From: a virus
Virus record (IMG/VR): IMGVR_UViG_3300037485_001872
Location: 70,123 to 134,122 of that record
Length of the DNA: 64,000 bases
Reading direction: 5' to 3' (one strand)
The notes beneath the pieces are model-generated. The model was given only the letters and a program-made list of their open reading frames with translations. It searched no databases and was not told where the DNA came from. A program made the translations under genes and the position numbers. Of the stretch, positions 11,801 through 30,398 are shown piece after piece; within the stretch, counting starts at the first letter, position 1, and each line of letters opens with the position of its first letter.

Positions 11801-14800
11801 CCTCACTGTCTCTACTTTTGGTGAATCTACTAGGTAGAAATCTACACCACTTCCTCTATCATACTCTTTGGCCATTTCATAAGTTGTGGCCGCAAAAATA
11901 CCCTCTACATCTGGGTGAGCATTAACTCCTGTCTTTCCATCTATTCCCTTAAAGTAAAGAGAAGGTGATTTCATTTTAGCCGCTGTAGATAGTATTAAGG
12001 CTTTTGCTGTAGGGTGTAATTTTTCTACAGGAACATTTTCTAGTTGTTTTTCAATATCTTCATTGGTAGATGGGGTTGTCCAATCTCCAAAGAATTTCTT
12101 AAATTTCTCTGAGAATACATTTTGGAAAATACCATTAGCATCTTCATTACTTTGGATGTGTGGGTTGGCAGCTATTTCTGAGAATAGTTCTGAAGCTACT
12201 TGAGGAGTTGGAGCTATTTTATTAGCATCAATCATATCCTCCACTGTTTTGTACATTTTCTTGAAATATTCAGCATGGAGTTGAGGATTAGAATGAAAAG
12301 ATTTTTCTAACATATTTTCATTTCTATCTGCCTCCACTGTAACATTCATCATATCATCAAGGGCTGTTCCTTCATATACGGCAAGATTATATATATTGGC
12401 GTGAGAAATAACATCAGCATTATCTTTTAAGAATTTAATTGTGTTCTCATACGTTGCTGCTGTTTCTTTTTCAAAACCAATGATTAAATTTGGAATAAAT
12501 TTCATTCCATTTTTTCTAATAATTTGAACGGCTTCTGCATTTAATCTTTCAGAGTTTGGTTTACTCATACCACGCATTACAGAGTCGTTATTAGACTCTA
12601 CACCAATTTCTACTAAAGCTATACCAGCTTTTTGCCAAAATCCTGGATTACTATCAATCTTTTTAACAGTGGCTGAGGTAGTTTGGATAATGAACCCTTT
12701 AAATCCTGGTTGTTGCTCCTTAACTCTTTGGTAAACATCTTCCAAATAAGTATAATTATCTGCCTGGCCAAATGTTTTATCATCTAAGTAGATGTATTTA
12801 GCATTTAATTTTGAAATATTTTCAACTTGCTCATCAATATTCTCCTTTGTTATTTTTTCAATCTTCTTAACAACAGTACAGAAAGCACAATTAAATAAAC
12901 ATCCTTCTGACATTTTTAGACGAGGAATAATTTCCATCCCTTTGAAAACATCATACTTATATCCATCTTTAAAATCATATCCAGCTTCTAACACCCCGTC
13001 TTCCATTGTATCAAAAGTAGAAGCATTTGTAGTGTTAAATTTACTTGAAAGATTAGGAATATAACCTCCTAACATGAAGTTTATTGATGGGTTGTCTTTT
13101 ACAAGTGTTTGAGCTGTAGATAAATTGGCATCTAATACAGAAAGCATTACCTTTTTATACCCTGCTTGTTGAATAAAGTTAAGGGTTTCCTCTGGGTCAC
13201 GCATTACATACATGTCCATATCTTTCCCTACACTATTATTAACAGCTGCTATCCAGAATGGAACCTCCATAAAGTCAACGCTTCTATCATACCCCTCCAC
13301 TTTAGAATACACCTTATCAAAATAATCATCAAAGATTTGTCCTTGTTCTGTAACATTTCCTTCACGTTGTCTATCCAATATGTATTGTGAGCTAACTTGA
13401 ATAGTTAATACCTTATCGGCATTATCTTTTGAAGGATTTTGGTTTACATAAATATTCTTTTGATTTAAACCATCATGTGCTGCTAATGCTTCTGTATATG
13501 TAGGAAACCCTTTAGTATCTTTAAATGTAGATGATGGTGTTAATGATGTATTTTTTTCAAAACTAGAAAGTCCTTCAATTTTAAAATTAGGACGGGTGGT
13601 TTCTTTCGAAAAATATGTGTTTGCTTCTTGTAATTTTTCTCTTACATTATCCCCACGGAACGTATTGAAATAAGCTATTTCTTGTTGCATTGCTTTTACA
13701 TCACCATTCACCACTGCTAATGCTAATTGACGAGCATGCTCTTGCGCAATTGACATTACAGGTTGTGCTTCATAAGCGGCTCTAAACAAGTCAAGGCGGT
13801 CTTGATTCATTGAAGATACTTGTGCATAACTATCTATTGGAGAAAGTCTATCTGAGGTAATTTTTCCTAAGAAATCTTCTATCTTATTTATCTTTTCAAA
13901 TATATAAGACGGGTCTAAAAATGTATTTTTGTATTTTGCAAGTTCTCTTAATACATCTCCTGCATTCTCTATTTTATATTTCCAAACATTTCCACCCTCT
14001 CCTTTAAAAGACACTTCTAAAAGTCTTTCTGCATTAGCATCTTGGTGGTCATATACATCAACTTCTTGTGGGGCTAAATATTGAAAGTATTCTCCTTTAA
14101 GTATAGCTCCTGTAGAACGAGAAATAAATTCTCCTAAAGGCATGTTCGCTAATTCTTCTGATGAAGCATCTTTAAGTCCAAATTGCTTGGCCACCCATTC
14201 ATAAATTGTAGAAAGCCAATCTTTTAGTTGTTGTAGGAAGCCTTTATCATTTGATAAATTGTCAAGTTCTTTTGCTCCATACTTTCCAATTAAGTTAGCT
14301 CTCACCTCATCCACAAGTCTTTCAAGATGTTGCTCAGGAGATTCCTCTGCTGCCCTAGCATAAACAGGGTTGTTTAAATCCATTCCTGTTGCTGTTGCTA
14401 AGTCACTAAGTTGGGTTTGTGAGTTTCTTACAACAAATTGTGTCATAATGTTATGTACATCAGTGTATTCCTTCTTTAATTCTGTATAAGAAATATTAGA
14501 TAGGTCTACCCCTGCAAATTTATGGTTTAAAATATCGGCCACTAATCTGGCTTCTACTTCCCCAAATAATAAAGAATAATTTAAGTATTTGGCATCTGTC
14601 TTATTTGTATTAAAGAAGTAATCTAATTCATATTGTGCAGCACTTAAAATATTACTTTCATTTACTGAAGGAGAGTTATTTTTTAGATAAATAGCAATAG
14701 CATCTCGTACTTCTCCTAATTTATTAGAAGAATTTCCTATTATTTTTTTGGCTTCGTTAAATATTGTATCACTATTTCCTCCTCTTGGAAAATTCTCTAT

Positions 14801-17800
14801 TTCCTGAATAGCATGACTTACTTCATGTATAAGAGTTAAAGCATAATATTTACTCCCATTAAGGTCGCCAGACTCGATATTGTTGATGATATTTCGAACC
14901 TCTCCTCCGTTGTTCCCAACTCCTGATTCTCCAATATTTTGCTCTCGGCTACTAATACGAATAAGTCCATTAGAGTAAGACCCGTTAGCTGTGTCAGCTT
15001 CTGATTTTTTGTAGAAATGTACATTTATATTTTTTAATTGTGGATATAATGTGAATAAACTAGTGTTTTCTAATACTTGGTCTAGGGTGTATTCTTTCCC
15101 TGGAGATGTATCTAGTCCTTTTTTAATATTAAACTCTTGTAATAGTTCATTAGAGAAATATTTCCATTGGCCTTCCTCTTTAAACCATCCTGTTTTATTT
15201 TCTATCTGTTGTGGGGAAGCTCCTTGAATTTCTAACTCCTTTGCCTGATTAAATAAAGAATTTAGCACGTTTAGGTTTTTTGCTCCTTGCTCTCCTACTA
15301 TTTGAAAAAGAGGAATATTGTGTTTACCTCCTAATACCTCTAATAGAATAAGTTGTTGTTCTCTCACAACATCCTCTGTTTTACTAAGTAATCTGTTTCT
15401 TCTAGCTTCGGGTGTAAAAATATTTCTATAAGTTACGTTACGAGCCTCTACTTCTCCTGCTAATTTTTGATATAAATTATATGGGGAAAACTCTGAAATT
15501 CTATCTCTAATAGGATTTAAATATTCATCTAAAGCATAAAGAACATCCATATAATCCTCTCTAGCTGCAATTTCCATCTTAATACGTAGTCTTTCAGGAA
15601 GATTATCCCACTCTTCTTCTATTTGTTTTGCTAACTCTTCGGATATTACTAAATCCTCTTTAATTAAAAAATCAGCCTTAAAGATTTTGTTTAGTTTTTT
15701 TTCTGTAATATCATCTAATAGTTCCACTATATAAGACATTTCCCTTAATACGTTCTCCTGTACTCTTAGATTTTCAATCTCATTTAGTTGTTCCTTGGTA
15801 AATATTTTATTTAAATTTTCTAATACTATTTCTGTGTTTCCACCTTTTGCAAAAAATTCTATAAATTGAATAGCATGTTGAAGCTCATGTATTAAATCTC
15901 CAAATATGAGTCTTTCTTCTTTAACATTTATTTCAATTGAGTTTGTTTCGGGGATATACCATGAATTATTTCTTACACGTGGGTCTATAGATATGGTGAC
16001 TTTCATATCTTTTAGTTGTGGGTATGCTTTAAATAGTTCTGAATTGTTTAACACTTGACTAAGTGTATACTCTCCATTAGTGCTTATTTTTAGGGTTCCA
16101 TCTGCAATTTCATACTTCCACTTTCCTTCTACCCCCTTTTCCCAACCTGTAGCTAAAAGGATTTCTTTAGGTGTCTTACCTAATTCTTCTAATTTTTGTG
16201 CCACACTTAGATTCTCTAACACGGCTGTAGCATTTTCTAGTCCTTTAGCCCCCTTTTCTCCTATAATTTGAAAAAGAGGAATACCTTGCTTTACCTCATT
16301 TTGTAGTTCTGGGGTGATGTCTATTTTATAAATAGATGGACTAATTGAATTTAATTCTTCCACTATCTTAGTAGCTTCATCTTTAGTATATTCTATGTCT
16401 TTTCCATTTTTATTATTCCATTCCCTAGCAATACCATTCCATATAGAAAAATTACCATTTGGTTTTTCCTCTATATATGATGCTGCAAGTAGTGCATTAT
16501 CGTCTTCAAACTTAGTAGTGGTTGGGGTTTGTTTAAAAACACTCTTAGCGACCTCCCCAACAGTGCCTAATGTTCCTTTAACAGGATTTCCGTAAAAGGC
16601 ATTCATCCCTTCTCTACGTGGCATAGAAACACCTGATTCCTCAGTTTGCATTCTATTCCATAACCTGTCAATTAATTTTTGTTTTTGTGCCTCGTTACGT
16701 TCTCTACTTAACACTTTATCAACAACTGCTGCAAGTTGTTCTTTAGTTTTAACTACAACATTATTAGCAGAAAGCATTAAATTATCAACATCTGTATTTT
16801 CAAATGCTGTTCCTCCCACTTGTTCTTTGATATTAATACTCCACCCCTCTAAAGGAGTGTATTTTGGTTTATCATTTATTGATGAATACTGGGCTCTCTC
16901 TTCAGGAGTTAATTTATCCTCCCATCCATTTCCATATTTGTTATAAAGGTCATTAACTAAAGTTTGTCTTTCTTCATTCCTTTCTTTGTTTCTTTCTGTA
17001 GCTTTTTGCCATTGGATTTTTTCACTTCCCCAACGTTCAAATTGTTGTTCACCATTTGTCCAAGAAATACTATCAACACCTTGTTTTACGGCTTCCTTTA
17101 AAGCAACTTTAAAGGCAAGTTTCACCCATTGTGGGGTACTTGTTATGAAAGGAGCTGTTGGTATTTTTGATTTAATGTTAAAATTATTATCAAATAAAGC
17201 ATTGTAATCCTCCTTATTTTGATTAAAATTTAATATGGCTTCGCTATTAACATTTAATTGTCTTTCATATGCAATTATTTCTGCCTTTATGAGTGTATCA
17301 GCAAATGCTTGTCTAGATGTATGATTAAAAAAGTGTGCATCATCTTTTCTATTATTAAAATCCAACATTTTTTCGTCATGTCTTTGTTGAATCATCTCTA
17401 ATCTAGTAGCAAGTGAGGTTTCAGAAAGTACTTTTATTCTATCTTCTGTTGCACTACTATTTAAATATTCAGATAGGTTTATTAATTTTGCATATTCCTT
17501 TTGACTATCTTCCCATCTAGTACGAATTTCTGATAGTTGTTCGGGGGATAATGCTGCTTTATCTGCTGTTATATTTTGAGCATTATATTTCTGACCCCAA
17601 TCGCTCTGAAGCTCTTCGAGAAATAACGTAGATGCACCATTTATATCTGTACGGGTATCCATACGTAAATGTACTAATACGTTGGGTTCATCCCAATGTG
17701 CTGAAGAGAAGTTTTTTGATTTTGAAATATCTGTTCCTATGTCCTCTAAATATTTATTATACTCTTCTTCAACTCTCTCTGGACTCCCAAATAATATACC

Positions 17801-20788
17801 ATTATTATTAGAGGCTACCATAAATTCATTTCGAGTCATTGGGGCTTGTTTTGGAAGCACCACTAATATTTCCCTATAATTCTGTCTGGCTCCTTTTTCA
17901 GTATGTGCTCCCCACTTTACTTCTTTTTGTTCCTTAAAATACTCTGTAATTTGGTCTTTTGCTTCTGTGAGTGTTTCTGGATACAATCGCATATCCAATT
18001 TCATTCCCCCTGGTTTATAAACATGGAAATCCTTATCCCCTCTTTTTTCAATTCTCCACCCTGCATTTTTAAATTCAACAATATTTCCTATAGGAGATGT
18101 TCGTTCACTTCTTACCCAAGCTTCAGTGTCTAATTCATTACCTGATATTTTAGCATCAAGTTCTTCCAGTTTTTTATAAATATCACCAAATTCTTGTTGG
18201 TATGTAGCCTCCATTTCTTCTCCTGCCTCTCTTAGGTCTTCTCCTAATTGTGCATATCCACTTTGAGAATAACTTCCAGTCCACTCATCCATTTCCCTTC
18301 GTATTCTTGTAACTTTTTCTTGTATTGCCTCTGCCGCTGGAGATACTCTATCCCTTATTTGTTGTTGCAGAGCTGCTTTTTGCTTATTGAATTCTTCTGC
18401 TTCTTTTAGTGTTAAACTACCCTTCACAACCTCAACCACCTGTACACGATTGTCCTTTAAGAATTGTTGTATTTCGGCTTTTGTAACACTTCTATTTTGT
18501 TCTTTCAACCAGGCGTTTAACCCAACCCATTCTGCTTCTGACCCTTTTCCAAATTTATCCAACCATTGTTTTGCTGGAATTTTTTCCACCTTACTTTCAG
18601 AAATTAGTTTTTCTAATGGTGAATAAAAACCATTAACTACTTCTGCCGCAATTGGGCGTACTTCTGTCGGTACTCCTCCAATATTCATGGTGATAGTACT
18701 ACCTACAGCTTCTGCATATTTTTCATCTAAAGCATTTTGCCATTGTTGGGCTATTGGTGTTAATAATTCATTCCCTCTTTCTAAAATAGCTTGTGCTTGT
18801 TTATTTCCATCTTTTGCTGCTTCTTTTAATAGGGCTTGGTGAAGATGCGCCACCTCATGAAGCGTAGTTTCATTAGATAGTTTTTCAGGATTTAAATAAA
18901 TCTTTCCGTCAAAATACATTCCATAAACAACCCCTACTGGAGTTTTTAATTCATATGTATCAAACTTTCTATCAAAGTTTAACTTAGTTACTACAGGAAT
19001 ACCCATAGCTTCTGCTTGTGCTTTTAGCTTATTAAAAACAGACGGCTCCATCTTAGTAGCATCTAGTTGTATACTTTTAATATACACCAAAGTATTCTCA
19101 ATTCCTGCGTCTCCTCCTATTTTAAGTTCCTGTTCTCCTATAAAGGTTCCTATTTCTTCACTACCTTTTTCAATTTTAGTATTTTCTTTTAACTTTTGTA
19201 AGTCTAAATCAATTCTAACTCCTCCATCTGCAAATGTTACAGGAGACCCATCAGGTAGATACCAACGAGTAGTGGTAAGTTCTGGATGGTCAAATTGGTC
19301 AGAGGTAGTTGTAGATACTCCTGGATACTCTCCTTCATCTCCTACGATGATATTACTGTCAAGTATTGAAGCTAAATTCTTAGTTGTAGTGTAATGGTAA
19401 GTAGTGGGTGCATTAATATCTCCCTCAAGACCATATGGATTATCTTGAACATTTAATAGCTTATGAAAAGCCATTTGCTCTGTTCTAAGTGGTTTTGCAA
19501 ACTCTCCTTTTCCAGGTTCCACTTGGTCATATGTAAGTTCTTTATTTTGCCATCTATCATAAAGCTTATTTTGTTCCCTTGTAAAATTCTCATCTACAAC
19601 ATTTCTTAAATCAATTAAATCTGATGGTGATAATTTTACTCCTTGTTTTAAAGCATCAATGTATTGTCTAAAATTTTCTAAAGTGATGCGTTCTCCTCCA
19701 AAAGTTGAGGGGGCATTAAATTTTAGTTGCTCTTTAATAGTGATGGCTTTATCATCAAATACAACGTAATTGCGTTCTTTAGAAATATTATCTGTAACTC
19801 CTGTTCCTAAACTATCAGGTGGGTATTGTATTCCATCAATTCCAGCTCTTAATAAAAATTCTGAGGCAGCTTTTGCTGAACCATCAAGACCTCTAAATTG
19901 TTTTTGTAGTTCTGAATATATTTCTGCGGCTGTATATTGAGGAGAAGCTAAACCTGATGTATTAATTCCTTCTTTTTTCCCTTGTTTTGCTATCTTTGCA
20001 GCTTGTGTTGGGGTTAGTTTTTGATACCAATCTAAGAAGTCATATTGGTCTGGTGTTTTTCCTTCATGTAACGCCACTTTATAAACCACCCCAGAATTTG
20101 TTAATTTTGTCTTTATAGTTTCATTTAACAATGTTTGGGCTTCATCAATGGCTTTCTGTTGATACTCAACATCATTTCCATATTCTAATTCCTTTTGAGA
20201 GTCCTTAATAAAATCACGGATGATATTTTTTATTTCTTCTTTAACAGATGCATTTTTATTAAATTCATTTTTTAAATCTATTTCTGCTATTGTAAGCTCA
20301 TCTACAAGTCTTCTTTGAGTTTCATTTTTGGCATTTTTATATCCAACTACAACACCTTTTTCATAGATTTTCCACTTTCCAATAGAAATATCCTGAATCT
20401 CAGTGTCGGCCATTTCCTTTGCATAATTGTCTGCAATATTTTTAAGAGAAGTGAAATAAATTCCATGCCCAAATACGCTTCCACCTTGACCTTCTCCAAC
20501 TTTTGACATATCAAAATTATCGAAAGTACGACCAGTACCATGAAATGCTTCCACCTGTGCTAGATAAGCTGAATGTTCCGCAATAATACGGTTCATCTCA
20601 TTCACATCTGTAGAAATGACTTCATTCGGGGTGAACTTTTTGAAAAGGTCTTTGAAGTAGTTTATAAGTACCTCTGGAGAAGTTGATTCCGCTGTTGGTG
20701 TAGCTTGAAAACTAGGAATTTGTGCACTTAAATAGTTGTACACTTTACTAATAACACCTTTCTTGTCTCTTTTTATTATGCAAGTCAT
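5864..20788 (-). CDS. giant (4974 aa) polyvalent putative virion cargo protein: three ART-like domains, zincin peptidases, two LPD23-like units, B12-binding-like radical SAM, helical C-terminal body
   Basis: AFHGT..F..F...G.G....G.GIYFT (ART); HEVAH, HELQH, HEVSH; IPLFQI.GE.GAK...TGW....G.WKY twice; CLFNCAFC; hydrophobic segment near the C-terminus; last gene of the cargo block. Confidence 0.85.
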   Translation of the reverse strand: MTCIIKRDKKGVISKVYNYLSAQIPSFQATPTAESTSPEVLINYFKDLFKKFTPNEVISTDVNEMNRIIAEHSAYLAQVEAFHGTGRTFDNFDMSKVGEGQGGSVFGHGIYFTSLKNIADNYAKEMADTEIQDISIGKWKIYEKGVVVGYKNAKNETQRRLVDELTIAEIDLKNEFNKNASVKEEIKNIIRDFIKDSQKELEYGNDVEYQQKAIDEAQTLLNETIKTKLTNSGVVYKVALHEGKTPDQYDFLDWYQKLTPTQAAKIAKQGKKEGINTSGLASPQYTAAEIYSELQKQFRGLDGSAKAASEFLLRAGIDGIQYPPDSLGTGVTDNISKERNYVVFDDKAITIKEQLKFNAPSTFGGERITLENFRQYIDALKQGVKLSPSDLIDLRNVVDENFTREQNKLYDRWQNKELTYDQVEPGKGEFAKPLRTEQMAFHKLLNVQDNPYGLEGDINAPTTYHYTTTKNLASILDSNIIVGDEGEYPGVSTTTSDQFDHPELTTTRWYLPDGSPVTFADGGVRIDLDLQKLKENTKIEKGSEEIGTFIGEQELKIGGDAGIENTLVYIKSIQLDATKMEPSVFNKLKAQAEAMGIPVVTKLNFDRKFDTYELKTPVGVVYGMYFDGKIYLNPEKLSNETTLHEVAHLHQALLKEAAKDGNKQAQAILERGNELLTPIAQQWQNALDEKYAEAVGSTITMNIGGVPTEVRPIAAEVVNGFYSPLEKLISESKVEKIPAKQWLDKFGKGSEAEWVGLNAWLKEQNRSVTKAEIQQFLKDNRVQVVEVVKGSLTLKEAEEFNKQKAALQQQIRDRVSPAAEAIQEKVTRIRREMDEWTGSYSQSGYAQLGEDLREAGEEMEATYQQEFGDIYKKLEELDAKISGNELDTEAWVRSERTSPIGNIVEFKNAGWRIEKRGDKDFHVYKPGGMKLDMRLYPETLTEAKDQITEYFKEQKEVKWGAHTEKGARQNYREILVVLPKQAPMTRNEFMVASNNNGILFGSPERVEEEYNKYLEDIGTDISKSKNFSSAHWDEPNVLVHLRMDTRTDINGASTLFLEELQSDWGQKYNAQNITADKAALSPEQLSEIRTRWEDSQKEYAKLINLSEYLNSSATEDRIKVLSETSLATRLEMIQQRHDEKMLDFNNRKDDAHFFNHTSRQAFADTLIKAEIIAYERQLNVNSEAILNFNQNKEDYNALFDNNFNIKSKIPTAPFITSTPQWVKLAFKVALKEAVKQGVDSISWTNGEQQFERWGSEKIQWQKATERNKERNEERQTLVNDLYNKYGNGWEDKLTPEERAQYSSINDKPKYTPLEGWSINIKEQVGGTAFENTDVDNLMLSANNVVVKTKEQLAAVVDKVLSRERNEAQKQKLIDRLWNRMQTEESGVSMPRREGMNAFYGNPVKGTLGTVGEVAKSVFKQTPTTTKFEDDNALLAASYIEEKPNGNFSIWNGIAREWNNKNGKDIEYTKDEATKIVEELNSISPSIYKIDITPELQNEVKQGIPLFQIIGEKGAKGLENATAVLENLSVAQKLEELGKTPKEILLATGWEKGVEGKWKYEIADGTLKISTNGEYTLSQVLNNSELFKAYPQLKDMKVTISIDPRVRNNSWYIPETNSIEINVKEERLIFGDLIHELQHAIQFIEFFAKGGNTEIVLENLNKIFTKEQLNEIENLRVQENVLREMSYIVELLDDITEKKLNKIFKADFLIKEDLVISEELAKQIEEEWDNLPERLRIKMEIAAREDYMDVLYALDEYLNPIRDRISEFSPYNLYQKLAGEVEARNVTYRNIFTPEARRNRLLSKTEDVVREQQLILLEVLGGKHNIPLFQIVGEQGAKNLNVLNSLFNQAKELEIQGASPQQIENKTGWFKEEGQWKYFSNELLQEFNIKKGLDTSPGKEYTLDQVLENTSLFTLYPQLKNINVHFYKKSEADTANGSYSNGLIRISSREQNIGESGVGNNGGEVRNIINNIESGDLNGSKYYALTLIHEVSHAIQEIENFPRGGNSDTIFNEAKKIIGNSSNKLGEVRDAIAIYLKNNSPSVNESNILSAAQYELDYFFNTNKTDAKYLNYSLLFGEVEARLVADILNHKFAGVDLSNISYTELKKEYTDVHNIMTQFVVRNSQTQLSDLATATGMDLNNPVYARAAEESPEQHLERLVDEVRANLIGKYGAKELDNLSNDKGFLQQLKDWLSTIYEWVAKQFGLKDASSEELANMPLGEFISRSTGAILKGEYFQYLAPQEVDVYDHQDANAERLLEVSFKGEGGNVWKYKIENAGDVLRELAKYKNTFLDPSYIFEKINKIEDFLGKITSDRLSPIDSYAQVSSMNQDRLDLFRAAYEAQPVMSIAQEHARQLALAVVNGDVKAMQQEIAYFNTFRGDNVREKLQEANTYFSKETTRPNFKIEGLSSFEKNTSLTPSSTFKDTKGFPTYTEALAAHDGLNQKNIYVNQNPSKDNADKVLTIQVSSQYILDRQREGNVTEQGQIFDDYFDKVYSKVEGYDRSVDFMEVPFWIAAVNNSVGKDMDMYVMRDPEETLNFIQQAGYKKVMLSVLDANLSTAQTLVKDNPSINFMLGGYIPNLSSKFNTTNASTFDTMEDGVLEAGYDFKDGYKYDVFKGMEIIPRLKMSEGCLFNCAFCTVVKKIEKITKENIDEQVENISKLNAKYIYLDDKTFGQADNYTYLEDVYQRVKEQQPGFKGFIIQTTSATVKKIDSNPGFWQKAGIALVEIGVESNNDSVMRGMSKPNSERLNAEAVQIIRKNGMKFIPNLIIGFEKETAATYENTIKFLKDNADVISHANIYNLAVYEGTALDDMMNVTVEADRNENMLEKSFHSNPQLHAEYFKKMYKTVEDMIDANKIAPTPQVASELFSEIAANPHIQSNEDANGIFQNVFSEKFKKFFGDWTTPSTNEDIEKQLENVPVEKLHPTAKALILSTAAKMKSPSLYFKGIDGKTGVNAHPDVEGIFAATTYEMAKEYDRGSGVDFYLVDSPKVETVRVETNVPFSVARQNETTEINAAKADVVFLSTFDAAGKRETQVVIKNPKVKISGKANPLVNKGGEPKLFYRTPEGKVFTNFADALNNTNIGSIEMGFISTDDIMITTNPDVFDIATADLVVMNNQYKLENPDSFLKVAAIDSNSNPKSISGFINKYLRQGLIAPNKKQMPNGEFKLAGKGELAINSIVSAAILSDEALADLGREGMTLSNDGTFTLNQKDESVIEIPTKDGGVKQVSISDLEKGKIDADLDGVHDVLFNLSYQKSTPFKGVPISKQEQDLLKSKLLGLLNKMGISVVSITEYTAKYKVRTGTDLSVNALVDLANGVVALSDNATLQDLTEEVAHIIIEAHPNQQEIRDLLKEIENTPEWETFSGEYYQKYSELYEGEELEEAVRREILGKILLNNILEGFANTAGNPSLFQKLIAIINSFINRIQAHLNVGHRTALQEYMDMATRIALNEDSEFLDRNVLKQSSLVLYSVNNTVVNTLDVTRRRLLGELEVAKQHIQSNQRILQKLKDSGAQTLKSDIRRLNAAIAKIGTNTATLNKAFADDTLTEEVKLEALNNSLNEVDEFHAVQVIASMNEAQITNLSNKLRIYKKTPGAAFNFGDQSQYRYLTTVALPQLDRLIALFKTFPNQPNVNKDKLVAQLEQQTIEIHRIQGEAYLQENKDVEQIVDRTLMGLNLPDSSTESGVVTKENIKASFDAVQRDVNVLQKVFGQLEHAPNIFLNLLGKIVANNNMLANLATLKIINPLIAYAEKNNWNITRFKSLRESSVSNYLISVIRSQDFDNAEKKMIEDAYEANLTDEKKEEIAKAKRYPVETDLTDEGLDKFLKAKNDWYEENLERPMVAKYYQDKENLYTEAGVGNELRVFLANLASRKAEILEKYRVSGSVDYSKIEEEDQYNLSRIVSDRKARKSFFNAETGEEKTGVDLEIANQLRKLDEIVQTKMNNKVAQSLFSKNFSELRPSEVVKVQEAKKKTIKNEFFSAVRDIESTDGSQAAFKFLMANGGLNFSDAYWNAITANTTKMVDRVDAIRLNDSRITPEHSRTMKASMDELEELLNSKKEILRQFTSANSPAEIEYDLMGELTKKNIIEKEDRIQELFLDVNTILSKYEEKIEDPFSYSENTTNEAYTKALADSGKPESEFLLLHMTEENKSRVRRFTSALKNVQRGGENLKAYEDYFDRKYGVNSSDDVRSLLTNRGMEELVADYSRERVTSYFKRFAPMGYDALLINLKDGTYSTTKLLDDLEAAKATAYAPTNILHNLAISTRFEWVEEGEDLRNPDYKTDSEFGFKQPKISKWRNDEYFRRFNPDANGQATTNLEEFTMLQKLKAVTKDAHIKYEEEGRNINKIPQVRRGKYERIQNASWDAIKNSVKDVIYNREDEKDYGEQVEGQDTDIRIIPKYYLRDLDDMEDVSNDFIYSYAVLQNAANTFEQRINSIADVSVIQNKLLNSKFDKGKAPASTNVAEAYREAMDAYFYGRRLSAKSSITLQNGKEVDVSRMAVHFNNLIKKAALGFSPTIAITSALVSNIQLAIYNRVGLYINTNSSRWAGGELSKLLPEYTTEIGKVNKQNKLYKLGETFGVHEIATKTKSAGYNRILRSLNDSPYAFMEMAATPHANIVMLSVLDDFRLVGDKFLTYEEFKLRADNANIDSKALLFKWNTLRKDSLYNLLENREGIMQLSEATENAIGKEYADALLSRVQSKIISTNNTIDSKTSADDKSAASRHFMMQFFTNFKDWFTLGVQKRFKRKHLNLRQGIEEEGHYITFKHFISDLTSLAYKDGLTKAISSIKSNYRSLSKTEQANLKLIALDVAAFTILTMLGMLVMAAADDDKNKHNWAIQYLSFIYFRTTSEVGSSQAPTGFLNVIDIIKSPIMAGNTMSQLFTVKDWTSDPVTSGTWEGYPKVARLLLRNTYYKHYMDLRNADAVREKTSFYRMLNSEVLISVQKPSKLEKEKLKKEALDNNINTIDKTGGI

Positions 20789-23333: not shown

Positions 23334-26300
23334 TTATTTCTTTTTACGTGTTTTACATTTTTTACTCAACTCTTCATTTGCGGCCTTAGTATTCTCTTGT
23401 GTTGGAGTTGACACTACATCGGGAGCTACATCTACAATTGATGGTTTCATTTTTCCAATGTAGTCCATTGAAAGTCCTCCAAAAATAGGAATTGTTTTGT
23501 CTATGTTCATGAATTTATCTAGAACGTCTTTAGAGTTCACAAATCCTCCTATGGTGTTTTCTCCTTCTGAGCTTCTAATTATTATAGTGGCATTTAGTTT
23601 TGCTGTTTTCTTGATTTGCTCGAAAATAGCTTCTTTTTGTTCCACTGTAACTCCCGCTTCTAAACTAACTATTATAGTGTCGTGAGATGAATAATCATAA
23701 TCTTCCCCTCTGGCTGTCACTAAATTAACTTTAGAACCCACTGCATCTAGAACTTTTTGTCCTAAAGCATTAGCTTCCTGTGAAATATCTACACCAGTTA
23801 CTTTATGTTGTTTTTTCTCAATTAGTATTGGAGAAAGTGGAATGGCTCCTGAACCTATAAATACAACATTACCTTTCATAAAACGGGTTTCTTTTTGTAA
23901 AGTTTCTACATAGTCAGCATAATATTCAAAATCTTCTAGTGTTTTAGTTCCCGCAATTATTTCATTTGCAAAAGCTACTTCTCTATCATAGTCTTCTTGG
24001 TTTAGGTTTTGTAATAATTGGGGTGTTTCTTTGAGGGATTGTTCTACTGCCTTAACTTTCTTAAAAGCCAATATCTTTTTGCGACCTAATTCAACGTGTG
24101 ATGCCATTCTATGTTGTCCATCATGGAAAAATCCGCTATAAATTACAGGTGGCAATTCTTCCCCTCTTTTTAATAGTTTCACCATATCATTGACTCTATC
24201 CATGTGTTCTAAATCACCATCGTAATCATCAACTAATTTATCTTTGTCGATTTTAGTATTGACAGAAACATAAGTTAATTCATATTGACCACTAAATTTA
24301 TTAGAGCTGTTATCAGCATAAGCCCCCATTCTGTCGTATATTTTAGTCAAATCTTCCGCAGAAACAACTTCACCTAATTTAATGCCACCCCATTCGCTTC
24401 TAATATCTTCCTTCACATCTCCTACACCAACACCAACACTACCTGCTTGGGGTGTTTCTTTGAGGGATTGTTCTAAAATTACATCAACTTGTTCACCTCC
24501 GACTACAAGTGTAGCTACTTTTTTACCATAAAAAGGAGATGACTTATCTGTTCCTTCACGAATTTCAGTAACTCTTACTGGAATATTTTCCTTTCCTTGT
24601 GATTCTTTTATTGCTTGTATTAACTCTAATGCACTTTCATTTTCTTCGGATTTTAAATCTATGCCTAAATTTTCTACTGCTTCTTCAAACGTGTTAAAAC
24701 CCTTATCATTTTGTTCTCTACTCTCTCCTTGTTTATTTGTAGTTTGTGTTTTAAATTTAGTTGTTTTTACACCATTTTTTTCTGTTGTAGTTACAACCAC
24801 CTTAACCATTTTACCCGAGCCATCATTTACAGTTTTATATGGTTTTTCCAATTTACTTCCCACATCTCCCCCTACACCAACACTACCTACTTCTTCTTCG
24901 GTTTTACCTTGTTCTTTGGGTAACAGTAAATCTTCTACAGTTTTTACTAATTCAGGATTAGTGTCGTCTAATTTTGCTTTGTGGTATGCTTCCGAAACAT
25001 CTCTTGCAGATTTATATTCATCTCCAAATTTATCTTGAAAATCATCAAACCAAGCAATATCTAAATTACCTAATGCAGTCCCTGTACTTTCAATATCTTT
25101 TAATGTATTATTAGATACCTCATTTGTAGTAGCATCTTCTCCCCCTACACCTACACTCCCTGCTTTTGGTAAAGCTGTTGCTTGACTTTTTGGGGCTTCA
25201 AGTAAAGGTGTAGCTTGACTTTTTAGTTGAGAAAGTATAGATAATTCGTTGCTGTACTTAGTAATTTCATCAAATGCTCTTTTGGGTTGTTCAAGTAATA
25301 ATGTAAGTGTATCTCCTAAGTTATTTGTACCTCTTAACCAACCTATATAAGTACCTTTATCTAAATTTTCAGTAAATTTGGGAATACCTACCACCTCTGC
25401 AAAATAATCTAATATAATTTGAGTTGCTGTAGTTCTTGTATTAACTTGGGAATCAGGTAGTGAATTTCTTCTTATATCTACATCGGATACTTTTACTTCT
25501 TGGGTAGGGACTACTGGTTGAGCTTCTTCATCCACTCCTTCAAATAGTTCCACCTCCTCATTCGGCTCCCCAAAATCTAGTACAACCTTTGGTGAATGAA
25601 AAACATCCCCACGTAAATCTAAATGTATACTTGCATTTTCAATTAAAGTTTGTTCCATATCTGTTTCTGGTAAAAGCCAGTCCGACAAAGATACGAATTT
25701 ATTTACATTAGACAATAAAGATTTTATTTTATCAATCTTTGCTTTATTAAGGTTTCCTGAAGTGATTTGTAGGGGCTGAACATCAATACCATTTCTCATT
25801 AATAAGAGATTTAGATTAGATGCTTTTTCAGCCTCTTCCACTTGTGTATTCATAATAGCATCCACTTCTCCTGAAACATCTATCACTGTAGGTATTAGAT
25901 TAACAGGGTAGGCTACATTCATTCCATTAAATGTAAACACAATAATGGCCACTCTTTTATTATCATATTTACCTTTCTTATTAGCTTGCACAGATTTTAT
26001 AAAAGAGGAAACATCTACTTTTGAATCATTTTTTAGATGTACTTTTCCATTCTCAATAAACCCTATATCTACAACATTTTTTACAGTGTCCTGAGTGAAG
26101 GGGTTATTTTGAATAGTTAACGTTCCGTCCTGATTAATTGTAGCATCTAATACAGGGTGTCCTATATACACATGTTGTACTGTGACTGTAGTGTTTAAGT
26201 CCACCATATCTCCATTACTTGCAAGGAAGGCTTCTGCGGCCTTTTTTCTTATCTCTGATACTCTTTTAAACACCTCACCATTTTTCGCTCCCTGAAGCTC

Positions 26301-29300
26301 TCTCTCGGCTTTTAGCACCCCTATTTCATTTGTACCATCTACAGAACGTATTACTAAGTTTTTAGCAAGGGTGATTAAGGCTTTTGCTTTATCCTTTGCT
26401 TTCTTATAATCGGCCAGAAGTGATTGATTGAATTTATTATTTGGAACCTCTAAAGAGAGTGGTGCGCCTGGGGCTAAATTCTGTATCTCAGCTACATCGA
26501 AGTTTCTATCGGCATCACGTTCAAAATCTGTGGGTACAGGGATTGCTTTTCCATCTACATTCATTAACAAAGTGTTGTAACTAGTTGGAAGTCTCATATT
26601 ATCCGTAGCTGTCCTAGTGATTAATATTGTACCTAGTGCGTTAATAGCATCCTTGGAAGCTTTATCAATTTTTAGATTGCGGGCATCATTGTCTTTAATA
26701 GTGAATCTAACTCCGTCATTTTCTATAACAATTGATTCATTTCTTTTTAGGGTGATAGTGGAAACATCAACCTCTACACCATTAACTTTTGCAGATTGTG
26801 GTGCTCCTCCATTAAATAAAATACGTAAAAACTCTTTTAAAGAAACGTTTGAGATTTCATAATGAACTTTCTTCTTTTCGTTCTCTACACGTTTAAACAT
26901 AGCCTTATCATAGGTTTGTAAAACATCGTATGGAATTTTGTCTGAGCTTTCCTCTTCGGCCTCAGACATAGTTTCAGTTAGCGGAATACTTTGGTGCTCA
27001 TCTGTCACTACTTCTTGCTTACTCTGTTCAATTGTAAATAACTGAGCATATAATTCTCCGAGTTTATACTTACCAGAAAAAGTTCCTTCTATGGCTCCCC
27101 ATTTATTAATCTTTTCCTTTAACTCATTATATCTTTGTTGTAACTTGGCTGAAAGAGGTTTTTTGGCTTTCTTATCCTCTAACTTATTAATTTCTCTAAA
27201 ATCCTCTTCTGTTGGTACTTCCTCTTCGGTTAAATGGTTTACATCAAGTCCTTGAAGGTAATTTTTAGAAGCCATAATGTCAGAGATGAGTTTACGTAAT
27301 CCAGCTGTAGTGTTTAAAGAAGTGTCCATTACAGGTTTCACTACCTTTCTGGCTTTTCTAATTGAATCCCCTTTTGTTTTCTTTAGAAGTTTTACAGCAT
27401 CATCTATAGCATTCTTTTCAGTGTCATAAATTCTTTCTTCCCTTCTAGATAGAGGGGTGTTATTAAACAGTTTTTCAGCTATACTATTTTTAAGCTCATC
27501 GGACACTGTATTGGAGCTCACAAACTCATTCCATACATTCTCTTCAATTGGGTCTGAGAAATCAATTAGGGTGGCATCCTTTACAGTGTATAGTGCATTC
27601 GAAAGGTCTGCTAATAGTCTAATATTAAAAGCATCATACTCAGAAAGAGAACTAGCTTTTATGTATTCTTCAATAGCTACTTTATGTTGTTCATCCTCTG
27701 TTAAAGGAATTCCCTTCTCAATTTTAGCATCAAATCTGGCCTGGTCTGCCGCAGAAACTAATGGAGTTTTAAATCTTTCCTTTGTATTAAATACTCCTAA
27801 TATTCCTTTATAACTACTAAAGTTATGTCTTTGGTCGGCCAATTTATCATAAACATTGTTGAAGCCTACAAAAGCAGTTTGATTAGCTTTGTATTCTCCT
27901 AATAAATGTTCAACTACTTGAGCTTCCTTTGGGTTTCTTTTTTTAAGCTCTGCTAAGTATCCATCAAAATTATCTAACTCATCTAAAGCTGTAAGGAGGT
28001 CATCAATTGAAGGAGAGGTTTTAGTCTTTGAAATTGAGTTAAATGCTAGGTCTTTAAATAAAGGACTTTCTGCTGCGGAAGCTTTTAGTTCATCTAATTC
28101 TTTTTGTCTTTCCTGAAGTACTCCTAATGTCTTCGCTGCCTTTCTTCTATTTGCTTCTAGTTTTTGGGCATGTTGATTATTCTCTGTTGTACGAGGTGCT
28201 GTTTCTTGAAGGGTACTAAAATCTTGTTGTAGAGCTATATACTCCTCATCTAGTGCTTTAACTCTTTTTGAAGCTAAACGAATGGCTTCTAATGAATTTT
28301 TACGTTCTTTAGAGATGTTATTATATAACTCAATATTACTAGCAATACCATTTTTTCCTGTCATTGCTTCTATGGTGTTTGCTAAATCTACACTTCTATC
28401 TTGAGCTTTAAGTCCTAAGAATATGTTGGCCGTTAACTCAGAAGTATAATCCTGCAACTTACCATCTTTTGTTTTGATTGGTGTAGCGTGAGTTTCAGCA
28501 GAAGCTCTTGCTAATTTAAATATCTTTACATTAGTTGCATATTCATCCTTTAAGGCTTGTTTTGTTTCATTAACTTTTGCTGTAATTTCCTCTTCAGACT
28601 GACCATCAATTTTAAATTCCTCAATAAGAGAAGCAGTGTCCATACTATCTAATGATTTATTAAATGTATCTACACTCTCTCCTAACTTTCCATTTCTATG
28701 CTCAAGTTCCATTTTGGCTAATTGAGATTGATTGAAAGCTATAGAGGCTGGGGTTAAATCTCCATTTCCTGCTAGTTTATTTGATTTTGCTGCGGTTGCT
28801 TGTAGTTGAGCAACACTTAACATATTCTTTAAAGCATTAGCTCCTGCATTTGTAGTTTTATTCCAGGCATCTTGTAATGCTGCTGCTTGAGGTGCTTGGT
28901 CTTTTAATGCTTTATTGTATCCTTTAACTGCTCCTCTACTTCCACCAAAAGCTCCAATTATCATACCAATTCCCACTTGTTTCATTCCCTCATTGGTTCC
29001 ATATGAGTAAGCCATGGCATCATAGAAAGCATCCATCATGTCATAGTTTTTCTTTAAGGAGCTGGGGTCATATTTAGCGGCTAAATAATTTTGAGAAGAT
29101 TGTGAAATTACAGATTGAAGTCCTTCCTCCCACACACCCTCTGTTAATGGTTTACTTAATGCGTGAGCTACTCTCCCTGTGTTTTTCCACATTTTAGTTG
29201 GTTCAAGAGCTTTATAAACTACCTTACCTCCCTCATCAATTGTATTTATTCCTACACCAAATGTTCTTCCTATTCCTTCAGAAATTGATTTAGACATTCC

Positions 29301-30398
29301 TTTACCAATTCCGAACATGCCTCCAAACATTATAACGTTGGACACTGCTAATAAAGGAGCATTTGTTAAAAAAACATTATTTGCTTTACTGACGGCATCT
29401 GGAATAAACTTTTGATATTCCTCCATTGTTGGATTACGACCATAGGCTTTTTGTATAGCGTCTTGGTAGTTAGCAATACTTTCGTCTAATGATTGTCTTG
29501 CTTCCACCCCTGCTTCAAACCCTACAGAAGTTGCTGTAAAACGTAATAAATTTGCAGCTTCTCCTACTTTTCCATACTTCACTGAAGAAGCTAATGCTCC
29601 TGCTTTCCCTGAATCCACTCCTAGTTCTGCTAATTTTCGCATAGCTCTTGTAGTGGCTCCAAGTTCCTCTGCTGCTCTTCCTGCTCTAAGACCCCATTTA
29701 GCCGTTGCTAACCCAATACTACTTCCTCCTGTAGCTGCTGCCCAAACTGCTTCACCACCTATAGCTCCTGCCATAAACGCAACACCTCCTAAAACATCAT
29801 TAAACCAGAAGTTGGTGTTTAGACCAGCCATTGCTTTAACCCAGCTCATGTTTTTTTCATGCTCTGTTACATAGTTTGGAAGTTTATAATCCAGCCTCTT
29901 ATTTTGTTCTTCAATCCATTTAGAAAAATCGTTGTTATAAAAAGCACTAAGTTTTCCTTCTTCAATGGCATTTACGGTTCCTGCAACAAATCCAATTGTT
30001 GAGTCTAAAGCATACCCTACAGCTTTTATAGCATTTTTACCTACACCATAAGCCATCTGTTCCCATCCAGATTGTTGTTTTGCATTTATCTCCTCATTAT
30101 TATACCCACTTAAATATTTTTCATACCGTGGTACATACTTTCCTGGGGCTACTTCAGCATATGCAACATCTATAGGTTTTGTATAACTAAATTCATTTGG
30201 CTGTTTTTTTTCAGATTGTATGAATGGATTATTAGCATGGGACTGATTAATAGTTAAAATCTTATCAAGAGCTGTCTTTGGAGGAGCTACAGCTTGATTT
30301 TGGATATTAGTTACAATAGTATTTAACTCTTCCTTATTAGCTATGGGAAGTGTTGGATTTTTTACAATGCTTGGGTCTACGTATGTTAGCTTATCCAT
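23334..30398 (-). CDS. large putative virion cargo protein (2354 aa) with C-terminal ParB/Srx-like and nicotianamine-synthase-like modules
   Basis: Gly/Ala-rich hydrophobic N-terminal region with EGVWEEGLQ; LPPVI....HDGQHR (ParB-like); FEYYADY..L..E....VVFIGSGAIPLS...VDIS..AN...IIIRSSEG (NAS-like). Confidence 0.8.
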   Translation of the reverse strand: MDKLTYVDPSIVKNPTLPIANKEELNTIVTNIQNQAVAPPKTALDKILTINQSHANNPFIQSEKKQPNEFSYTKPIDVAYAEVAPGKYVPRYEKYLSGYNNEEINAKQQSGWEQMAYGVGKNAIKAVGYALDSTIGFVAGTVNAIEEGKLSAFYNNDFSKWIEEQNKRLDYKLPNYVTEHEKNMSWVKAMAGLNTNFWFNDVLGGVAFMAGAIGGEAVWAAATGGSSIGLATAKWGLRAGRAAEELGATTRAMRKLAELGVDSGKAGALASSVKYGKVGEAANLLRFTATSVGFEAGVEARQSLDESIANYQDAIQKAYGRNPTMEEYQKFIPDAVSKANNVFLTNAPLLAVSNVIMFGGMFGIGKGMSKSISEGIGRTFGVGINTIDEGGKVVYKALEPTKMWKNTGRVAHALSKPLTEGVWEEGLQSVISQSSQNYLAAKYDPSSLKKNYDMMDAFYDAMAYSYGTNEGMKQVGIGMIIGAFGGSRGAVKGYNKALKDQAPQAAALQDAWNKTTNAGANALKNMLSVAQLQATAAKSNKLAGNGDLTPASIAFNQSQLAKMELEHRNGKLGESVDTFNKSLDSMDTASLIEEFKIDGQSEEEITAKVNETKQALKDEYATNVKIFKLARASAETHATPIKTKDGKLQDYTSELTANIFLGLKAQDRSVDLANTIEAMTGKNGIASNIELYNNISKERKNSLEAIRLASKRVKALDEEYIALQQDFSTLQETAPRTTENNQHAQKLEANRRKAAKTLGVLQERQKELDELKASAAESPLFKDLAFNSISKTKTSPSIDDLLTALDELDNFDGYLAELKKRNPKEAQVVEHLLGEYKANQTAFVGFNNVYDKLADQRHNFSSYKGILGVFNTKERFKTPLVSAADQARFDAKIEKGIPLTEDEQHKVAIEEYIKASSLSEYDAFNIRLLADLSNALYTVKDATLIDFSDPIEENVWNEFVSSNTVSDELKNSIAEKLFNNTPLSRREERIYDTEKNAIDDAVKLLKKTKGDSIRKARKVVKPVMDTSLNTTAGLRKLISDIMASKNYLQGLDVNHLTEEEVPTEEDFREINKLEDKKAKKPLSAKLQQRYNELKEKINKWGAIEGTFSGKYKLGELYAQLFTIEQSKQEVVTDEHQSIPLTETMSEAEEESSDKIPYDVLQTYDKAMFKRVENEKKKVHYEISNVSLKEFLRILFNGGAPQSAKVNGVEVDVSTITLKRNESIVIENDGVRFTIKDNDARNLKIDKASKDAINALGTILITRTATDNMRLPTSYNTLLMNVDGKAIPVPTDFERDADRNFDVAEIQNLAPGAPLSLEVPNNKFNQSLLADYKKAKDKAKALITLAKNLVIRSVDGTNEIGVLKAERELQGAKNGEVFKRVSEIRKKAAEAFLASNGDMVDLNTTVTVQHVYIGHPVLDATINQDGTLTIQNNPFTQDTVKNVVDIGFIENGKVHLKNDSKVDVSSFIKSVQANKKGKYDNKRVAIIVFTFNGMNVAYPVNLIPTVIDVSGEVDAIMNTQVEEAEKASNLNLLLMRNGIDVQPLQITSGNLNKAKIDKIKSLLSNVNKFVSLSDWLLPETDMEQTLIENASIHLDLRGDVFHSPKVVLDFGEPNEEVELFEGVDEEAQPVVPTQEVKVSDVDIRRNSLPDSQVNTRTTATQIILDYFAEVVGIPKFTENLDKGTYIGWLRGTNNLGDTLTLLLEQPKRAFDEITKYSNELSILSQLKSQATPLLEAPKSQATALPKAGSVGVGGEDATTNEVSNNTLKDIESTGTALGNLDIAWFDDFQDKFGDEYKSARDVSEAYHKAKLDDTNPELVKTVEDLLLPKEQGKTEEEVGSVGVGGDVGSKLEKPYKTVNDGSGKMVKVVVTTTEKNGVKTTKFKTQTTNKQGESREQNDKGFNTFEEAVENLGIDLKSEENESALELIQAIKESQGKENIPVRVTEIREGTDKSSPFYGKKVATLVVGGEQVDVILEQSLKETPQAGSVGVGVGDVKEDIRSEWGGIKLGEVVSAEDLTKIYDRMGAYADNSSNKFSGQYELTYVSVNTKIDKDKLVDDYDGDLEHMDRVNDMVKLLKRGEELPPVIYSGFFHDGQHRMASHVELGRKKILAFKKVKAVEQSLKETPQLLQNLNQEDYDREVAFANEIIAGTKTLEDFEYYADYVETLQKETRFMKGNVVFIGSGAIPLSPILIEKKQHKVTGVDISQEANALGQKVLDAVGSKVNLVTARGEDYDYSSHDTIIVSLEAGVTVEQKEAIFEQIKKTAKLNATIIIRSSEGENTIGGFVNSKDVLDKFMNIDKTIPIFGGLSMDYIGKMKPSIVDVAPDVVSTPTQENTKAANEELSKKCKTRKKK
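24018..24475. repeat. perfect 29-bp direct repeat flanking the ParB-like module
   Basis: TTGGGGTGTTTCTTTGAGGGATTGTTCTA at 24018-24046 and 24447-24475, encoding EQSLKETPQ. Confidence 0.9.

Follow-up and report, generated by a model that had tools for sequence, protein, structure and literature searches.

Introduction

The only role known for enzymes of the nicotianamine synthase (NAS) family is the production of small metal chelators, which they carry out in plants, fungi, archaea, and a few bacteria. The enzyme of Methanothermobacter thermautotrophicus (MtNAS; PDB IDs 3FPE, 3FPF, 3FPG, and 3FPJ) is a free protein of ~265 amino acids, in which Glu81 and Tyr107 are reported to deprotonate the acceptor amine (PMC10491745). 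The corresponding residues of AtNAS1, E77 and Y106, are reported to be essential (PMC10248798). The staphylopine, pseudopaline, and yersinopine aminobutanoyltransferases (CntL; PDB IDs 7C7M, 7C9M, and 8ZX0) act by a mechanism reported to be analogous to that of MtNAS (PMC10491745), and a PDB entry of a catalytic-glutamate mutant, E84Q, exists for CntL. Here we describe a NAS-like domain that forms residues 2132–2319 of a 2354-amino acid phage protein and is encoded at positions 23442–24005 of the window, by which we mean the whole 64,000-nucleotide stretch of DNA analyzed. The window comprises bases 70123–134122, the 3' part, of the 134,122-base IMG/VR record IMGVR_UViG_3300037485_001872, which is linear and estimated to be ~88% complete. 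The window features for which coordinates are given below are all encoded on the minus strand.

Another described system to which this locus can be compared is that of the polyvalent proteins, giant strings of unrelated enzymatic domains that are believed to be injected along with the phage DNA (Iyer et al. 2017, PMC5512222). In its main text, supplements aside, this article contains neither "nicotianamine" nor "aminocarboxypropyl", nor "S-adenosylmethionine" or its abbreviation SAM as a whole word. In a paper with a phylogeny of 186 NAS proteins, the word "virus" never occurs (PMC10248798). Among the titles listed in a literature search, none concerned a NAS-like enzyme of phages.

Results

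The domain is a shortened member of the NAS/CntL family

A preliminary description of this DNA had proposed a NAS-like domain at the C-terminus of a cargo protein, from motifs within positions 23450–24017, which correspond to residues 2128–2316. All of the quoted motifs are present in the minus-strand translation of the 2354-residue open reading frame (ORF), which holds FEYYADYVETLQKE, VVFIGSGAIPLSPI, VDISQEAN, YDYSSHDTIIV, and IIIRSSEG (residues ~2157–2279). The Pfam NAS model PF03059, presumably built largely on plant NAS, matched the 278-residue C-terminus with 45 bits (E 1.2e-11; gathering cut-off 27.1) over profile positions 50–235 of 276. The score was 40.7 bits with the whole protein and 44.5 bits in a six-frame search of the phage record. 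NAS was the sole Pfam model over its cut-off, whereas the generic methyltransferase models all fell below theirs, with Methyltransf_25 at 24.8–26.1 bits (cut-off 27), Methyltransf_11 at 16.7 (21.2), Methyltransf_12 at 15.4 (30), and Methyltransf_23 at 11.7 (27).

With sequence alone, the best PDB matches were MtNAS (E 5.7e-8) and CntL (~4e-4). A profile of a 42-sequence alignment, composed of the window domain, 24 short-form proteins, and 17 canonical proteins, matched MtNAS with an E of 4.1e-34 and CntL with 7e-21, compared with 3.3e-4 for the best methyltransferase. With the NCBIfam CntL equivalog model NF033601 the score was 29 bits, far short of the cut-off of 350, and the domain is therefore family-level kin and not CntL itself. 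Residues 2132–2319 are an N-terminally shortened member of the NAS/CntL family, and the proposed family identity is borne out by the Pfam match and by a profile and a structural model that are both closest to MtNAS rather than to a generic methyltransferase.

Catalytic and signature residues

Six columns are invariant in the 42-sequence alignment, namely Glu2140, Glu2170, Gly2182, Gly2184, Pro2187, and Arg2275, and conservation is 90% or more in a further three (Tyr2163, Ala2209, and Lys2255). Glu2140 (codon 23979–23981; column E29, 42/42 aligned) falls in the column of residue 81 of chain 3fpe_A, the E of KLEME. This MtNAS residue is a glutamate in 3fpe and 3fpf and a glutamine in 3fpg, 3fph, 3fpj, and 3o31, of which 3fpg and 3fpj are titled as the "E81Q mutant" of MtNAS. 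Tyr2163 (codon 23910–23912) aligns with the Y of PRY at position 107 of 3fpe. Because these columns align with MtNAS residues 81 and 107, whose roles are published, both defining catalytic residues are present in the window domain. The residues also correspond, via MtNAS, to E77 and Y106 of AtNAS1. The predicted Gly-rich SAM-binding motif, FIGSGAIPLS, spans residues 2180–2189 (23832–23861), and its G, G, and P are invariant in the alignment. Arg2275 (codon 23574–23576) is invariant both in the short clade described below and in canonical NAS/CntL-like proteins. From these aligned residues, the shortened domain is apparently catalytically intact.

Residue statistics for the clade were obtained from 42 members selected by a Glu at the LEAG position, and were compared with those of 81 canonical-type proteins. 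In the 42 motif-selected members the catalytic Glu and Tyr, the second Glu, both Gly, the Pro, the Lys, and the Arg are 100% conserved; the Tyr is present in 42/42 clade members and in 95% of the canonical-type proteins. The signature of the clade is the LEAG motif, residues 2246–2249 (23652–23663), which follows directly on strand β4 (model residues 130–133 in the predicted structure). Its L and E are found in 42/42 members of this set, which was selected on the E, and the four positions L-E-A-G are 95–100% conserved, whereas the canonical proteins have A-L-(V/A)-G there. We take this site to be the motif IV position of class I methyltransferases, beside the transferred group. The clade also differs from canonical proteins in the Thr that follows its catalytic Tyr and, close to the C-terminus, in having F-x-G in place of their Asn. 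In the comparison with MtNAS, the window domain has LEAG at motif IV where MtNAS has A-A-L-A, and F-x-G-L-S where MtNAS has "N-S/T".

Predicted structure and N-terminal truncation

The AlphaFold2 model of the domain, made from the 42-sequence alignment, has a predicted local distance difference test score (pLDDT) of 88.2 and a predicted template modeling score of 0.80. Model residues 21–208, equivalent to residues 2132–2319 of the protein, have pLDDT values of 91–99, and the first 20 and last 35 residues have low values. The C-terminal tail, residues 2320–2354 (23337–23441), is modeled at a pLDDT of 49–65 and ends in a basic run. The fold consists of the Glu-bearing helix and the Tyr-bearing helix followed by a Rossmann sandwich. 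In a Foldseek comparison with the PDB the top four matches are MtNAS chains (E 5.9e-13 to 3.1e-11, template modeling scores 0.67/0.62, 198–206 columns), and methyltransferases and CntL come after them, from 6e-10. With VIA-align, MtNAS gives Z scores of 21.0–21.3 (root mean square deviation (rmsd) 3.0–3.2, 193–201 residues aligned), followed by the PH0226 methyltransferase (19.4), CntL (18.2), and the remainder (17.6 or less). MtNAS ranks first and ordinary methyltransferases are not the best structural match, by a modest margin; the weight of the family assignment is carried by the sequence evidence rather than by the structure.

MtNAS aligns to the model only from residue ~59–60 (VIA-align, with low-confidence stretches trimmed). 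In the hidden Markov model (HMM) of the 42-sequence alignment the short-form proteins start at profile positions 11–45, whereas most canonical proteins start at 5–10, and members that consist of the domain only (solo members) begin 2–20 residues ahead of the Glu helix. The late MtNAS alignment, the late profile starts, and the short N-termini of the solo members together indicate that ~60 residues are absent from the start of the canonical N-terminal domain. The earlier suggestion that most of the N-terminal helical domain is lost holds for these ~60 residues, but not for the last helix of that domain, which is kept together with the catalytic Glu. Since the Glu-bearing helix is retained, truncation does not amount to a loss of catalytic residues.

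MtNAS is the closest match of the window domain in sequence and in structure, with the equivalents of Glu81 and Tyr107, the Gly-rich SAM motif, the invariant Lys and Arg, and the helix-helix-Rossmann order from residue ~60 in common. The window domain differs in its low identity to MtNAS (22–25%), in lacking the first ~60 residues, and in being a module of a 2354-residue phage protein rather than a free enzyme. Compared with the plant and fungal core-NAS of ~280 amino acids it is ~90 residues shorter. CntL shares family and fold (Z 16–18), but the window domain fails the CntL equivalog model, has a shortened N-terminal domain, and was found without a CntM, CntK, or transporter context. The opine dehydrogenase CntM (PF10100) had no match in the 134-kb record, itself ~88% complete, in a search whose control matched 0/14 genomes.

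The domain belongs to a clade of solo and embedded modules

A HMMER scan of 1.84 billion cluster representatives returned 264 proteins at E ≤0.001, 50 of them at ≤1e-10. The top match, P0003, was rejected as a close relative, being the window's own protein, identical over 2354 amino acids. The next ~45 matches occur in two forms, solo proteins of ~186–290 amino acids and internal or terminal modules in proteins of 687–3842 amino acids, and after these short forms the ranking continues with canonical NAS/CntL-like proteins of 240–320 amino acids. The HMM matched 148 representatives, of which the 123 that cover the domain were used for a FastTree phylogeny (LG+gamma) on core columns. One clade with a local support of 1.0 holds 45 of the 123 and consists of all 44 sequences with L-(E/D) after strand β4 and one with LGAG. 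Twenty clade members, including the window domain, lie in proteins of 687–3842 amino acids and 25 are solo proteins of 186–382 amino acids. Solo and embedded proteins intermingle in the tree, suggesting that the domain has been fused and released repeatedly. Among the 25 clade members scanned individually, 24 match Pfam NAS at E ≤0.001 and at most 4 match any methyltransferase model. The 42 motif-selected members are ~25–53% identical to the window domain.

All 10 giant carriers that were scanned match NAS above its cut-off. As in polyvalent proteins, these NAS-like relatives adjoin ART-PolyVal (P0038), LPD22 with GGDEF (P0011), LPD38 (P0021), Radical_SAM (P0039), NUDIX (P0027), and extra methyltransferase domains (P0004 and P0038), as well as DUF7178 (P0013, P0038, and P0039) and DUF3293 (P0013). 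P0027 also has a distant, sub-threshold match to ParB_N. At least one of LPD22, LPD38, and ART-PolyVal occurs in 3/10 of the carriers, and the flanks of the NAS-like module vary from carrier to carrier. Variable flanks with such co-domains are the pattern of polyvalent proteins (Iyer et al. 2017, PMC5512222). The LEAG-type domain is a swappable module of giant phage polyvalent proteins that also occurs as small solo proteins.

Several further observations were made on these relatives. P0004, labeled "SAM-dependent methyltransferase" at its source, carries the NAS-like module, a similar linker, and then a second, true class I methyltransferase domain (Pfam), giving tandem SAM-using transferases; a similar stretch lies downstream of the NAS-like module in P0008. 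A solo subfamily (P0026, P0029, P0032, P0033, P0035, P0036, P0040, P0042, and P0043) has a basic N-terminal motif of approximately M-x-x-(I/V)-(P/A)-K-M-x-A-K-(K/P)-K, which might serve as a tag for targeting or packaging or might result from mis-called starts. In the ESM Atlas, clusters of ~188–215-residue proteins, assigned mostly to Bacillota and Thermoplasmatota, contain Pfam NAS in part of their members. One of these clusters is named "nicotianamine synthase family protein", and one all-viral cluster is without a common Pfam family.

The solo homologs P0007 and P0029 had no tblastn match among 50,697 GenBank phage records, and none of four NAS-like queries matched any family of PHROGs v4. 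The viral contigs of IMG/VR gave no match with the single domain, with a 7-sequence subfamily alignment, or with the N-terminal 999 residues. A search of genome contigs found one locus, that of P0007 (positions 7995–8576 of L003, a 176-kb contig labeled as a Candidatus Saccharibacteria metagenome-assembled genome). Metagenome contigs gave three short loci. Some contigs with solo forms have phage-like neighbors; on one of them (L006), the neighbors that match PHROGs include a DNA polymerase and its exonuclease subunit.

The carrier protein has a conserved virion-protein core

The carrier ORF (23334–30398, stop included) encodes a crAss-type cargo or virion protein with a lineage-specific C-terminal extension. 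Its conserved N-terminal core, residues 32–868 (27795–30305), matches phrog_32390 with an E of 7e-93, and residues 52–847 are 29% identical to gp038 of Cellulophaga phage phi4:1 (BLASTP, E 1e-69). A second conserved block, residues 1080–1539 (25782–27161), is also common to gp038 (24% identity, BLASTP E 5e-19). The phi4:1 protein is 1957 amino acids long and is annotated as structural from tandem mass spectrometry (MS/MS) proteomics, and the gene order around it matches that of the window. On these alignments, the N-terminal ~1540 residues of the 2354-residue protein are orthologous to this MS/MS-detected virion protein. Residues ~74–488 resemble genes annotated as an RNA-polymerase subunit in crAss-like phage records. 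RNA-polymerase-associated proteins are reported among the virion cargo proteins of PhiCrAss001, each large cargo protein being estimated at ~6 copies (PMC10172136).

A Pfam scan of gp038 found no domain, and the C-terminal 328 residues of the window protein had no tblastn match among the 50,697 GenBank phage records; the last ~800 residues therefore appear to be lineage-specific. The preliminary placement of the domain at the C-terminus of a virion cargo protein thus stands as far as the core is concerned, which is orthologous to a detected virion protein. Packaging of the 2354-residue protein in the virion of this uncultured crAss-type phage is probable, from homology only. Pfam scans found none of the polyvalent marker domains (LPD, ART-PolyVal, MuF, and others) in the 2354-residue protein itself. 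It nevertheless has a polyvalent-type layout, in that a conserved cargo core, a ParB/sulfiredoxin (Srx)-like cassette, and the NAS-like cassette are combined in one ORF among virion-protein genes.

Repeats delimit C-terminal cassettes

A perfect 29-nucleotide direct repeat (100% identity) encodes EQSLKETPQ twice in the C-terminal region, at residues 1976–1984 (24447–24475) and at residues 2119–2127 (24018–24046), immediately ahead of the NAS-like module. The two copies are spaced by 429 nucleotides, or 143 codons, and are in frame. The second copy bounds the NAS-like module, and the upper edge given to the domain in the preliminary description (24017) is the base just before this repeat. A GSVGVG(G/V) linker occurs in three copies, at residues 1747–1752, 1838–1843, and 1986–1991 (region 24422–25165), encoded by a 27-nucleotide repeat family of 81–100% identity (24422–24448, 24866–24892, and 25139–25165). 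The 29- and 27-nucleotide repeats could be recombination joints or processing sites.

The segment bracketed by the two 29-nucleotide repeats (24047–24446) is a probable ParB/Srx-like module, with HDGQHR at residues 2092–2097. The invariant pattern of this cassette is DLEHxDRVN...PP(V/I)I...F-x-DG-x-HR...GR(K/R)(K/R)IL(A/V)F, in which F-x-DG-x-HR and the subsequent GR are found in 7/7 sequences. Its solo homologs are 179–197 amino acids long (P0002 and P0157–P0159), and P0093 has an apparent second DG-x-HR-like element. The AlphaFold2 model of the cassette (pLDDT 74.8) has weak matches to sulfiredoxin, ParB-N, Noc, PadC, free serine kinase, and 1vk1. The best Foldseek match is to a ParB-N domain with an E of 0.24, with none at ≤0.001, and the best VIA-align match is to sulfiredoxin with a Z of 5.5 (rmsd 4.2, 71 residues aligned). 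The cassette has no Pfam, PDB-sequence, or PHROG match, and we name it ParB/Srx-like with reserve. A word-indexed protein search with the 278-residue C-terminus found a single protein, which aligned to the ParB-like part. A conserved pairing of the ParB-like and NAS-like cassettes was considered and rejected, the former lying directly upstream of the latter only in the 2354-residue protein. The NAS-like domain is best explained as the last of several cassettes, linked by repeats, by which a conserved crAss-type virion cargo protein was extended at its C-terminus.

Neighboring genes

The window has a G+C content of 29–37%, its long ORFs are almost all on the minus strand, and a search of the window for tRNA genes gave none. 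The genes adjoining the 2354-residue ORF match PHROG virion-protein families. A neighboring 2018-residue protein matches phrog_37948; among annotated proteins it is closest to structural proteins of Cellulophaga phages phi17:2 and phi4:1 (40% identity) and of csAssE-Sib, a gut phage of the crAss type. Two genes downstream of the 2354-residue ORF lies a gene for a 4974-residue polyvalent protein (5864–20788), given here as context, with matches to LPD23 (68 bits, in two stretches) and Radical_SAM (39.9 bits, residues 2626–2787) and an ART-PolyVal score of 29.3 bits, under the cut-off of 31.2. A putative metallopeptidase is also present in this protein.

Discussion

The reading we favor, with a probability of roughly 0.5, is that the NAS-like domain is an ejected SAM-dependent aminocarboxypropyl-transferase effector that uses a non-canonical amine acceptor. 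The 2354-residue protein would be packaged and then ejected into the host along with the DNA, after which the NAS-like module would refold and its Rossmann fold would take up SAM. Glu2140 and Tyr2163 would deprotonate an amine, which would attack Cγ of SAM, so that the 3-amino-3-carboxypropyl (ACP) group is transferred and 5'-methylthioadenosine (MTA) leaves. The module would thereby serve as an early host-takeover or counter-defense effector, rather than in metallophore synthesis. This reading is favored because the catalytic residues are shared with characterized enzymes and because the interpretations of the module as a SAM sink or as a metallophore enzyme are weakened by the points given below.

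The acceptor may be approached from the features of the domain. The NAS-like core has an isoelectric point (pI) of 4.8 and a net charge of −9 (clade median pI 5.2). Three features, namely the loss of the lid helices over the canonical acceptor chamber, the acidity of the core, and an additional invariant Glu at motif IV, suggest a cationic acceptor other than the buried amino acid of the canonical enzymes. This would most likely be an amine of a protein, a polyamine, or some other abundant amine. A nucleic acid was considered as the direct acceptor and is less likely, given the acidic core and the lack of a constant DNA-binding partner in 22 carrier flanks. The preliminary description had raised the modification of a macromolecule. 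We hold the corresponding proposal, that LEAG modules are ejected enzymes that add ACP to a macromolecular amine early in infection, only tentatively and think it rather unlikely in this specific form. Possible targets would then be host proteins of defense or transcription, or proteins of the virion or the host that associate with nucleic acid.

Several points weigh against the ejected-transferase reading. The phi4:1 ortholog behind the packaging inference itself lacks a NAS-like domain. The existence of solo forms means that the domain needs no virion carrier and that its function may be independent of ejection. The context of the solo forms is thin, with 4/10 neighbors on the three metagenome contigs matching PHROGs, and a Pfam scan of nine neighbors on the P0007 contig gave only TrmB in one and LRR repeats in another. 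In structure, ordinary methyltransferases score only modestly below MtNAS (Z 19.4 versus 21), and we know of no NAS-family enzyme with a macromolecular acceptor.

The alternative that survives best, although we consider it doubtful, is the SAM sink that was also raised in the preliminary description. Here the module would turn over SAM alone with release of MTA, and SAM-dependent defenses such as type I/III restriction and BREX would be starved, in the manner of the phage T3 SAM lyase. This could proceed by ACP oligomerization, as in plant NAS, or by cyclization to azetidine-2-carboxylate or homoserine lactone. Plant and fungal NAS are reported to need only SAM and to release three MTA (PMC10248798), methyltransferase-fold SAM cyclizers (AzeJ and VioH) and a phage SAM lyase are known (PMC11794875, PMC10491745), and polyvalent proteins have been interpreted as injected counter-defense effectors (PMC5512222). 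The SAM lyase of phages T3 and Svi3-3 breaks SAM with release of MTA, but its fold and family are reported to be unrelated to the NAS-like domain (PMC11794875), and the likeness is a functional analogy for this alternative only. The T3 enzyme is an early expressed protein and not a virion module. The rates of described enzymes speak against a sink: fungal and moss NAS are reported at 0.2–0.8 nkat per mg, with strong inhibition by MTA (PMC10248798). By our conversion this corresponds to ~0.03 per second or less for an enzyme of ~33 kDa. The SAM pool is roughly 1e5 molecules per cell, and the few ejected copies would be too slow to drain it unless they were >1000-fold faster. The NAS-like module is moreover fused to or co-delivered with enzymes that themselves need SAM, namely methyltransferases (P0004 and P0038) and radical SAM enzymes (P0039 and the 4974-residue protein). 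An MTA nucleosidase (PF01048) is absent from the phage record, in a search whose control matched 14/14 genomes, so that none is encoded there to relieve product inhibition, although the host enzyme could serve. These arguments are indirect, and they disfavor a SAM sink for a few virion-delivered copies.

It is improbable that the module is non-catalytic and serves as a SAM-binding sensor, a decoy, or packing or structural mass. With part of the N-domain gone, acceptors might no longer bind productively, but the catalytic Glu and Tyr, the Gly-rich motif, the Lys, and the Arg are fully conserved across the 42 motif-selected members at the low identities given above, and the clade has a LEAG motif of its own. 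Such a conservation pattern is typical of an active enzyme.

That the domain is a regular class I SAM-dependent methyltransferase with no more than a resemblance to NAS is, in our view, quite improbable. The Rossmann fold is common, many methyltransferases align at Z 16–19, Methyltransf_25 scores barely below its cut-off, and P0004 was named a methyltransferase at its source, though a second, true methyltransferase domain is present there. Against this stand the NAS model as the only one above its cut-off, the NAS matches in nearly all clade members scanned, a profile E of 4e-34 for MtNAS against 3e-4 or worse for methyltransferases, and the retention of the NAS-specific Glu and Tyr, neither of which is part of the Rossmann core.

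A metallophore- or opine-type enzyme that gives the phage or the infected cell a metal chelator is highly improbable, for although the characterized relatives NAS, MtNAS, and CntL all make metal-chelator precursors, the domain falls far short of the CntL equivalog cut-off, lacks the lid of the canonical acceptor chamber, and has polyvalent effector domains rather than transport or dehydrogenase genes as its partners in the clade.

What appears to be new is a separate, shortened, and apparently active NAS branch in phage polyvalent and cargo proteins, a known enzyme family in a new setting, and it points to an unstudied non-methyl SAM chemistry at the start of infection. If the product is a small molecule, the branch would offer a new route to ACP-containing metabolites. 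If the acceptor is macromolecular, or if SAM is removed, it would represent a new class of effectors in phage counter-defense. The macromolecular reading, if true, would add an undescribed modification to the phage-host conflict, parallel to the injected ADP-ribosyltransferases and the DarB-type methylases.

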